Part shown: positions 58,301-58,780 of the stretch, one piece after another
How the letters are laid out: each line of letters begins with the position of its first letter
How positions within the stretch are numbered: the first letter of the stretch is position 1
Assembly: GCF_041886205.1 (NCBI RefSeq)
Contig: NZ_CP169030.1
Reading direction: 5' to 3' (one strand)
DNA length: 64,000 bases
From: Escherichia coli
GTDB lineage: Bacteria > Pseudomonadota > Gammaproteobacteria > Enterobacterales > Enterobacteriaceae
Notes under the pieces: generated by a model
The model's input: only the letters and a program-made list of their open reading frames with translations
Told to the model about the DNA's origin: nothing
Database searches by the model: none
Translations under genes and position numbers: made by a program

Positions 58301-58780
58301 CTATCCACTTCGGCGCGGTGACTTCCGGCAGTACGTTGTCACACAGACGGTTCCACCACGTCGATACTTTCTCGTTACTCCAGATGTCGCACCAGTCACC
58401 TCTTTTTGGGGTGAAAAGAGCAGTAATGCTTCCCTGACCTCATCCGGTAATCCTTCCCAGCGACGCTGTCCAGTACCGCTCTGTAACCAGAGTTCATGCA
58501 GCATCAGGCAGTTTTGCTCATCCAGAAGTACACCGTTCTGCAGGTGTGTCAGCCAGTGGGTGAACGCGATATTCTCAGGCGATACAACGCCACGTCCGGC
58601 AGCCATCAGTCCGTGGCATGGTTGAAACCGCACATCTTCAGTGGTCTGCAGAAGTCCGGCACTTCCGGCCACAAACAACTGAATACCTTCATTTGTGGTG
58701 CGGCGATAAAACGGTGTGACGGCACCGCTGGCCAGTCGTTTAATCGCAGCAATCTGTGCCGGCTCGGCAGAAAAATACAT
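58301..58780 (-). CDS. Hypothetical protein; C-terminus likely disrupted by frameshift near 58400-58420
   Basis: ORF tail (VTGATSGVTRKYRRGG…) is low-complexity while an alternative frame gives a protein-like tail (…TPKRGDWCDIWSNEKVSTWWNRLCDNVLPEV…). Confidence 0.45.
   Translation of the reverse strand: MYFSAEPAQIAAIKRLASGAVTPFYRRTTNEGIQLFVAGSAGLLQTTEDVRFQPCHGLMAAGRGVVSPENIAFTHWLTHLQNGVLLDEQNCLMLHELWLQSGTGQRRWEGLPDEVREALLLFSPQKEVTGATSGVTRKYRRGGTVCVTTYCRKSPRRSG

Follow-up and report, generated by a model that had tools for sequence, protein, structure and literature searches.

A minus-strand open reading frame (ORF) coding for 159 amino acids (Table 1) lies in the window, i.e., the whole 64,000-nucleotide stretch of the Escherichia coli contig NZ_CP169030.1 that was analysed, and is a remnant of yubA, a DUF1281/Api92-like gene. 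In F-like plasmids yubA occupies the sop-proximal end of the leading region, with sopC on one side and a DNA methylase gene on the other. The same setting is found here, the ORF being situated downstream of sopB (59850-60821, minus strand) and the sopC repeats and upstream of a split DNA methylase gene. The sopC centromere, between sopB and yubA at ca. 59163-59762, consists of tandem repeats seen as self-matches of 84-90% identity at offsets that are mostly multiples of ca. 43 nt.

Table 1. Features of the yubA locus, in coordinates of the window
Feature	Position	Strand	Description
Whole yubA pseudogene	58272..58804	-	Ancestral ATG at 58804-58802, stop TGA of the ancestral frame at 58274-58272; aligned to full-length genes of CP088065 and GN4738
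Mechanical 159-aa ORF	58301..58780	-	Starts at internal Met9; 42-residue out-of-frame tail ALLLFSPQKEV...SPRRSG
Nonsense codon 4 (W4*)	58793..58795	-	TGG to TGA, changed base 58793; A in the window, CP061340 and L007-L021, G in CP076277, GN4738, CP088065 and F
Junction of the 393-bp (131-codon) in-frame deletion	58323..58331	-	One surviving copy of the 9-bp direct repeat CTGCCGGAA
Frameshift site	58430..58431	-	3-nt run reduced to 2 nt; plus strand TTT to TT, gene strand GGGAAAGC to GGGAAGC
Homopolymer cluster T5/G4/A4	58403..58417		T5 58403-58407, G4 58408-58411, A4 58414-58417; columns identical in the window, CP061340 and CP088065; the lesion lies elsewhere
Ancestral-frame C-terminal remnant	58272..58429	-	(S)ITALFTPKRGDWCDIWSNEKVSTWWNRLCDNVLPE/VTAPKWIVDKVAHYGG, then stop; out of frame with the N-terminal part
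DNA methylase pseudogene	57204..57886	-	Fragments of 66 aa (57686-57886) and 160 aa (57204-57686); one base lost at about 57695, beside an A6 run

The gene and its neighbourhood

A megablast search with positions 58200-58850 against 72,556 plasmids matched 4,942 records, 4,637 of them with at least 80% coverage, and nearly all the matches align as two pieces spread over about 1,045 nt, against the 651 nt of the query. The matched locus is mostly annotated as an intact CDS for a "DUF1281 domain-containing protein", also under the names yfaB or yccB, and about 4,600 plasmids carry yubA as a single frame of 927 nt. The copy of the classic F plasmid is named YubA in UniProt (YUBA_ECOLI). The intact protein comprises the PF06924 domain at residues 30-206 and a ferredoxin-like DUF1281_C domain (PF18406) at residues 209-282. 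The 159-aa ORF as it stands belongs to the DUF1281 family by its PF06924 score of 88.8 bits (gathering cut-off 27.3), with a match to profile positions 1-98 of 177, extended to positions 1-130 once a single base is restored. The two-domain architecture of DUF1281 and PF18406, typical of proteins of about 300-308 aa, is not preserved; with 131 codons deleted, the window copy no longer matches PF18406. NCBIfam offers no model for the DUF1281 protein, the matches in PHROGs are to families of unknown function only, and a literature search on this gene and family yielded nothing on function or on the lesions described below. A scan of positions 55000-61000 with Rfam gave no family at the gathering score.

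As the structural-genomics representative of the family, Api92 of Yersinia pseudotuberculosis (PDB 2IJR) shows homology to the intact plasmid protein across residues 3-274 of the latter (E = 2.5e-48), and both have the N-terminal xWCxNR motif. Unlike the window copy, Api92, which is 300 aa long and contains both domains, is encoded on the chromosome or on an island. As the alignment with Api92 begins at residue 3 of the intact protein, and the 308-position profile phrog_37043 is matched from 1 to 308, the sequence comparisons indicate that the true N-terminus is MPNWCSNR, translated from the upstream ATG preceded by GAGGAG; the MPNWCxNR sequence is conserved in both Api92 and phrog_37043.

The methylase gene next to yubA is a true pseudogene. 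The lost base is accompanied by adjacent substitutions (GATGCGCTG to ACGCGTTA), and the lesion is common to the window, CP061340, CP076277, and the locus L018, the frameshift being present in four complete RefSeq plasmids. The gene is intact (227 aa) in the loci L016, L017, and L019 and in F, and the intact methylase scores 493.7 bits with the NCBIfam model NF010253.

The two pseudogenes are separated by a GC-rich spacer (57887-58275), in which PGAP places a gene for a 101-aa "hypothetical protein" (57963-58268 in the window), marked "internal stop" in the relatives. As single-stranded DNA, the plus strand of the spacer, i.e., the transferred T-strand, forms a large stem-loop (dG -110 kcal/mol, z = -6.4 relative to shuffled sequences). 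A single-stranded DNA promoter hairpin has been reported 5' of an operon with a homolog of M.EcoGIX (PMC12672017), and the folding model suggests that the spacer is more probably such a hairpin than a gene, in which case the TAC-to-TAG change found in it among the related plasmids (see below) would not represent gene decay. A G/C run at 57922-57929, which falls within the hairpin and a short way upstream of where the methylase gene starts, is polymorphic: it reads G7C3 in the window and G8C2 in CP061340, and is one G shorter in CP076277 and GN4738.

Lesions of yubA

Compared with thousands of intact copies, yubA of the window carries a nonsense codon, a 393-bp deletion, and a 1-nt deletion. 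The nonsense codon stands at position 4, so that MPNWCxNR cannot be translated from the native start, and the native ribosome-binding site (GAGGAG) feeds an ORF of three codons ending in TGA. With the upstream ATG taken as the true start, the change at codon 4 is a real nonsense mutation. The ATG of the 159-aa ORF, Met9 of the ancestral protein, lies 3' of the nonsense codon; it is preceded by AACCGT and lacks its own Shine-Dalgarno sequence.

The 393-bp deletion removed profile positions 131-177, the last quarter of the DUF1281 domain, together with the entire C-terminal domain. In the intact 927-nt gene the CTGCCGGAA repeats are found at gene positions 475 and 868, 393 nt apart. The deletion junction occurs in 4 of at least 2,852 matching PLSDB plasmids. 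Neither the deletion nor the TGA at codon 4, upstream of the internal Met9, had been noticed in the first-pass annotation, which pointed to a possible third frameshift at the 3' end of the ORF.

The 1-nt gap is the sole indel in the gene between the window and CP061340 or CP076277, and among annotated complete plasmids it is found in the window alone. Both frames are open over 58304-58438, and its position cannot be read from the window sequence alone for this reason; alignment with the orthologs, which had been proposed as a check, confirms the loss of one base and identifies the -1 frame as the ancestral one. The other frame encodes ...TPKRGDWCDIWSNEKVSTWWNRLCDNVLPEVTAPKWIVDKVAHYGG, a tail homologous to the intact DUF1281 proteins and hence their ancestral C-terminus, itself a fusion across the 393-bp internal deletion. 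Restoration of the base gives a 169-aa protein, which in BLASTP shares with the intact protein 139 of 157 residues (89%) and 19 of its last 22 residues, the latter matching the extreme C-terminus of the intact protein.

The two-frame switch proposed from the window alone is thus real, with its junction not after ...REALLLF but after ...LPDEVRE, where the ancestral protein continues with SITALFTPKRG.... The ancestral tail ends 27 nt past the stop of the 159-aa ORF, and the near-equality of the two end points is a coincidence. The T5/G4/A4 cluster in which the switch had been placed does exist; its runs are invariant in the window, in the close relatives, and in the full-length genes, and the lesion lies outside it, 13-28 nt away, at the outermost limit of the interval given in the first-pass annotation (58380-58430). 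Orthologs sharing the tail of the annotated frame were named beforehand as the finding that would speak against a frameshift, and the tail proved to be confined to a cluster of 2 sequences representing this one allele, against ca. 4,600 plasmids with the other frame. The comparison indicates that the 42-residue tail is an out-of-frame reading of a conserved coding sequence.

Related plasmids and the order of decay

The exact 159-aa product (P0001) is present in public protein collections (EKI56260.1, GDI94547.1, and NGI00002.1) and its coding sequence was found on at least 24 contigs, which belong to 5 NCBI (GCA) assemblies and several Logan SRA assemblies; the SRA runs with the allele include SRR15929445, SRR34342707, SRR36103916, and SRR14867020. 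Since many of the identical contigs may represent one widespread plasmid clone, these are to be counted as independent sequencing events and not as independent evolutionary ones; reproducibility is judged here from independent assemblies and not from read pile-ups. Three carrier loci are 100% identical to the window across 6,480 nt. Others are not: L013 differs by 3 SNPs, L008 by 51 mismatches, all downstream of 57413, and L011, L012, and L014 have different downstream junctions. In L011 (GCA_002228695.1) the breakpoint falls inside the methylase remnant (locus position 4175, corresponding to 57606 of the window) and is followed by a gene for a DUF3560 (ParB-like) protein; the leading region of that plasmid has therefore been partly deleted or rearranged. 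None of the PLSDB and RefSeq E. coli records is identical to the window in this region, the best reaching 99.8% and having no frameshift.

The sharing of the allele by independent assemblies and by non-identical plasmids argues that the frameshift is very probably a real, inherited mutation. The first-pass annotation had suggested either systematic homopolymer errors or relaxed selection. An error of sequencing or assembly at a homopolymer, with the plasmid in fact encoding the 169-aa in-frame product, would fit the presence of several frame breaks within the same 1.6 kb and the existence of a nearly identical un-frameshifted allele: the exact repaired protein (P0003) is found in public collections, and L018 (SRR25052921) matches the window over about 2.4 kb (ca. 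56750-59200) except for the indel itself and a single SNP at 58939. Such an error is nevertheless very unlikely, as the allele recurs on the contigs listed above, which come from 5 GCA assemblies and from multiple, separately assembled SRA runs and include plasmids with different flanks. Moreover, with its 3 nt the affected run is atypically short for an error-prone homopolymer, the longer T5, G4, and A4 runs 13-28 nt away are all correct, and the other frame breaks are common to four complete RefSeq plasmids. Of the two suggestions it is relaxed selection that is borne out, by the earlier deletion and the stop codon.

Intact yubA genes, such as those of CP088065 (UGA10475.1) and GN4738 (WP_123001164.1), are situated at the same locus, with sopC on one side and the small GC-rich "hypothetical" ORF and the methylase gene on the other. 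In the retained part the window copy is 89% identical to them at the protein level, and PF06924 is matched in both; the window copy differs by the three lesions, with the loss of the DUF1281 end and all of PF18406. The closest relatives, CP061340, CP061338, CP063154, CP076277, and L016-L021, share the 393-bp junction with the window and are locally 99.6-99.8% identical to it. CP061340 and L018 also resemble the window in the nonsense codon 4, a TAG in the small ORF, and the methylase frameshift. Unlike the window, the relatives with the deletion keep the A3 run and are read through to ...VAHYGG, giving a product of 169 aa (177 aa in CP076277). PGAP labels their yubA an "incomplete" pseudogene, and in CP061340 and CP076277 it flags yubA as incomplete, the small ORF as having an internal stop, and the methylase gene as frameshifted, all three as pseudogenes.

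Five sites scored in all the loci were combined with the gene calls to order the states of the lesions, and four nested states were distinguished. In the first, found in most plasmids, the genes are intact. In the second (L016, L017, and L019) yubA has the nonsense codon 4 and the 393-bp deletion, and the 227-aa methylase is intact. The third (CP061340 and L018) has in addition the TAC-to-TAG change in the small GC-rich ORF and the methylase frameshift, and the fourth (the window and L007-L015) also the A3-to-A2 frameshift in yubA. CP076277 (L005) falls outside the series: it has the deletion, the TAG, and the methylase frameshift, yet its codon 4 is TGG. This is phylogenetically incompatible with L016, L017, and L019, in which TGA at codon 4 is combined with an intact methylase gene, and implies either a TGA-to-TGG reversion or recombination among the plasmids. 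As read from these sequences, the order of the lesions is not perfectly tree-like.

The yubA gene of the classic F plasmid (NC_002483; 168 aa) is likewise truncated, an A run in it having lost a single base, and this allele is present on at least 1,000 contigs. Its lesion is an independent one, the A6 run immediately following the left CTGCCGGAA repeat having been shortened to A5, and F has neither the 393-bp deletion nor the nonsense codon 4, and its neighbouring methylase gene is intact. In NC_002483 (L022) the yubA locus extends over locus positions 4856-5785, the A run is at about locus position 5339 (about 53,338 in the record), and the product ends in ...NVLPEKPCRLTC. The length of about 170 residues of F's YubA is, by this comparison, that of a truncated protein. 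Identity of the window plasmid with classic F was considered and rejected, given the intact methylase and the different yubA lesion of NC_002483. Because the lesions of F and of the window are independent, at least two inactivations of yubA have taken place in F-type plasmids.

In all pairs the dN/dS ratio is ca. 0.4, the same for decayed and intact alleles, and is uninformative on relaxed selection, as the decayed alleles differ from each other by 0-1 substitutions. Relaxed selection is supported by the lesions rather than by substitution rates, since 131 codons had apparently been lost and a stop acquired at codon 4 before the frameshift arose.

Origin of the 159-aa ORF and its meaning

The feature is best regarded as a vertically inherited single-base deletion in an already dead gene, i.e., an ordinary, multiply hit pseudogene, to which we assign a probability of roughly 0.93. 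In the first step 393 bp would have been lost by illegitimate recombination or slippage between the 9-bp direct repeats, and the same alleles carry the TGG-to-TGA stop at codon 4. The adjacent methylase gene would then have been frameshifted and, last, the A3-to-A2 change would have put the residual C-terminus of a presumably non-functional yubA out of frame. Replication slippage in the 3-nt A/T run is the most likely source of this single-base deletion.

The 159-aa ORF might alternatively code for a short neofunctionalised protein under selection, composed of the N-terminal two-thirds of DUF1281 and a new basic tail. Many assemblies contain it intact and identical, its match to PF06924 (profile positions 1-98) is still significant, and it has a counterpart of similar length in the truncated YubA of classic F. 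Against this, translation would have to begin at the internal Met9, behind AACCGT and without a Shine-Dalgarno sequence, while GAGGAG serves the 3-codon ORF; the tail is a mere out-of-frame reading of conserved coding sequence; the identity of the copies reflects the youth of the deletion alleles, with their 0-1 substitutions; and the adjacent genes are decaying in parallel. The sequence features taken together make a selected short protein very unlikely.

Still less credible is a programmed -1 ribosomal frameshift, e.g., by slippage of tRNA-Lys on CCC CAA AAA GAG, that would join the N-terminal part to the ancestral tail: the two frames are open over the same interval and the A5 run in the overlap permits single-tRNA -1 re-pairing, but a zero-frame scan of the whole ORF revealed no heptamer of the form X XXY YYZ, the same A5 run occurs in a single-frame setting in thousands of homologs and in the immediate ancestor allele, so that the two-frame layout is not conserved, translation from the native ribosome-binding site ends at codon 4, and the resulting protein would be devoid of 131 residues, including one whole domain.

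With the pseudogene as the preferred reading, the 159-aa ORF is a by-product of decay and not a gene model to be repaired. Its proper annotation is that of a yubA (DUF1281) pseudogene with three lesions, and it should be neither corrected to the 169-aa form nor kept as a protein. The clustered frame breaks in the plasmid leading region can serve as a lineage marker, and the nested states order related IncF plasmids.

The distribution of the lesions also means that at least some successful F-like plasmids can do without yubA and the small methylase, a point that bears on current work on early-expressed anti-defence genes. The loss of yubA in F-type plasmids may even be a repeated and possibly adaptive one, with decay selected rather than neutral. 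The idea derives from the independent inactivations in F and in the window, whose lineage has also lost the adjacent early-expressed anti-restriction methylase, and we consider it unlikely. If it were true, the distal genes of the leading region would be costly, or targeted by host defence, in some hosts.
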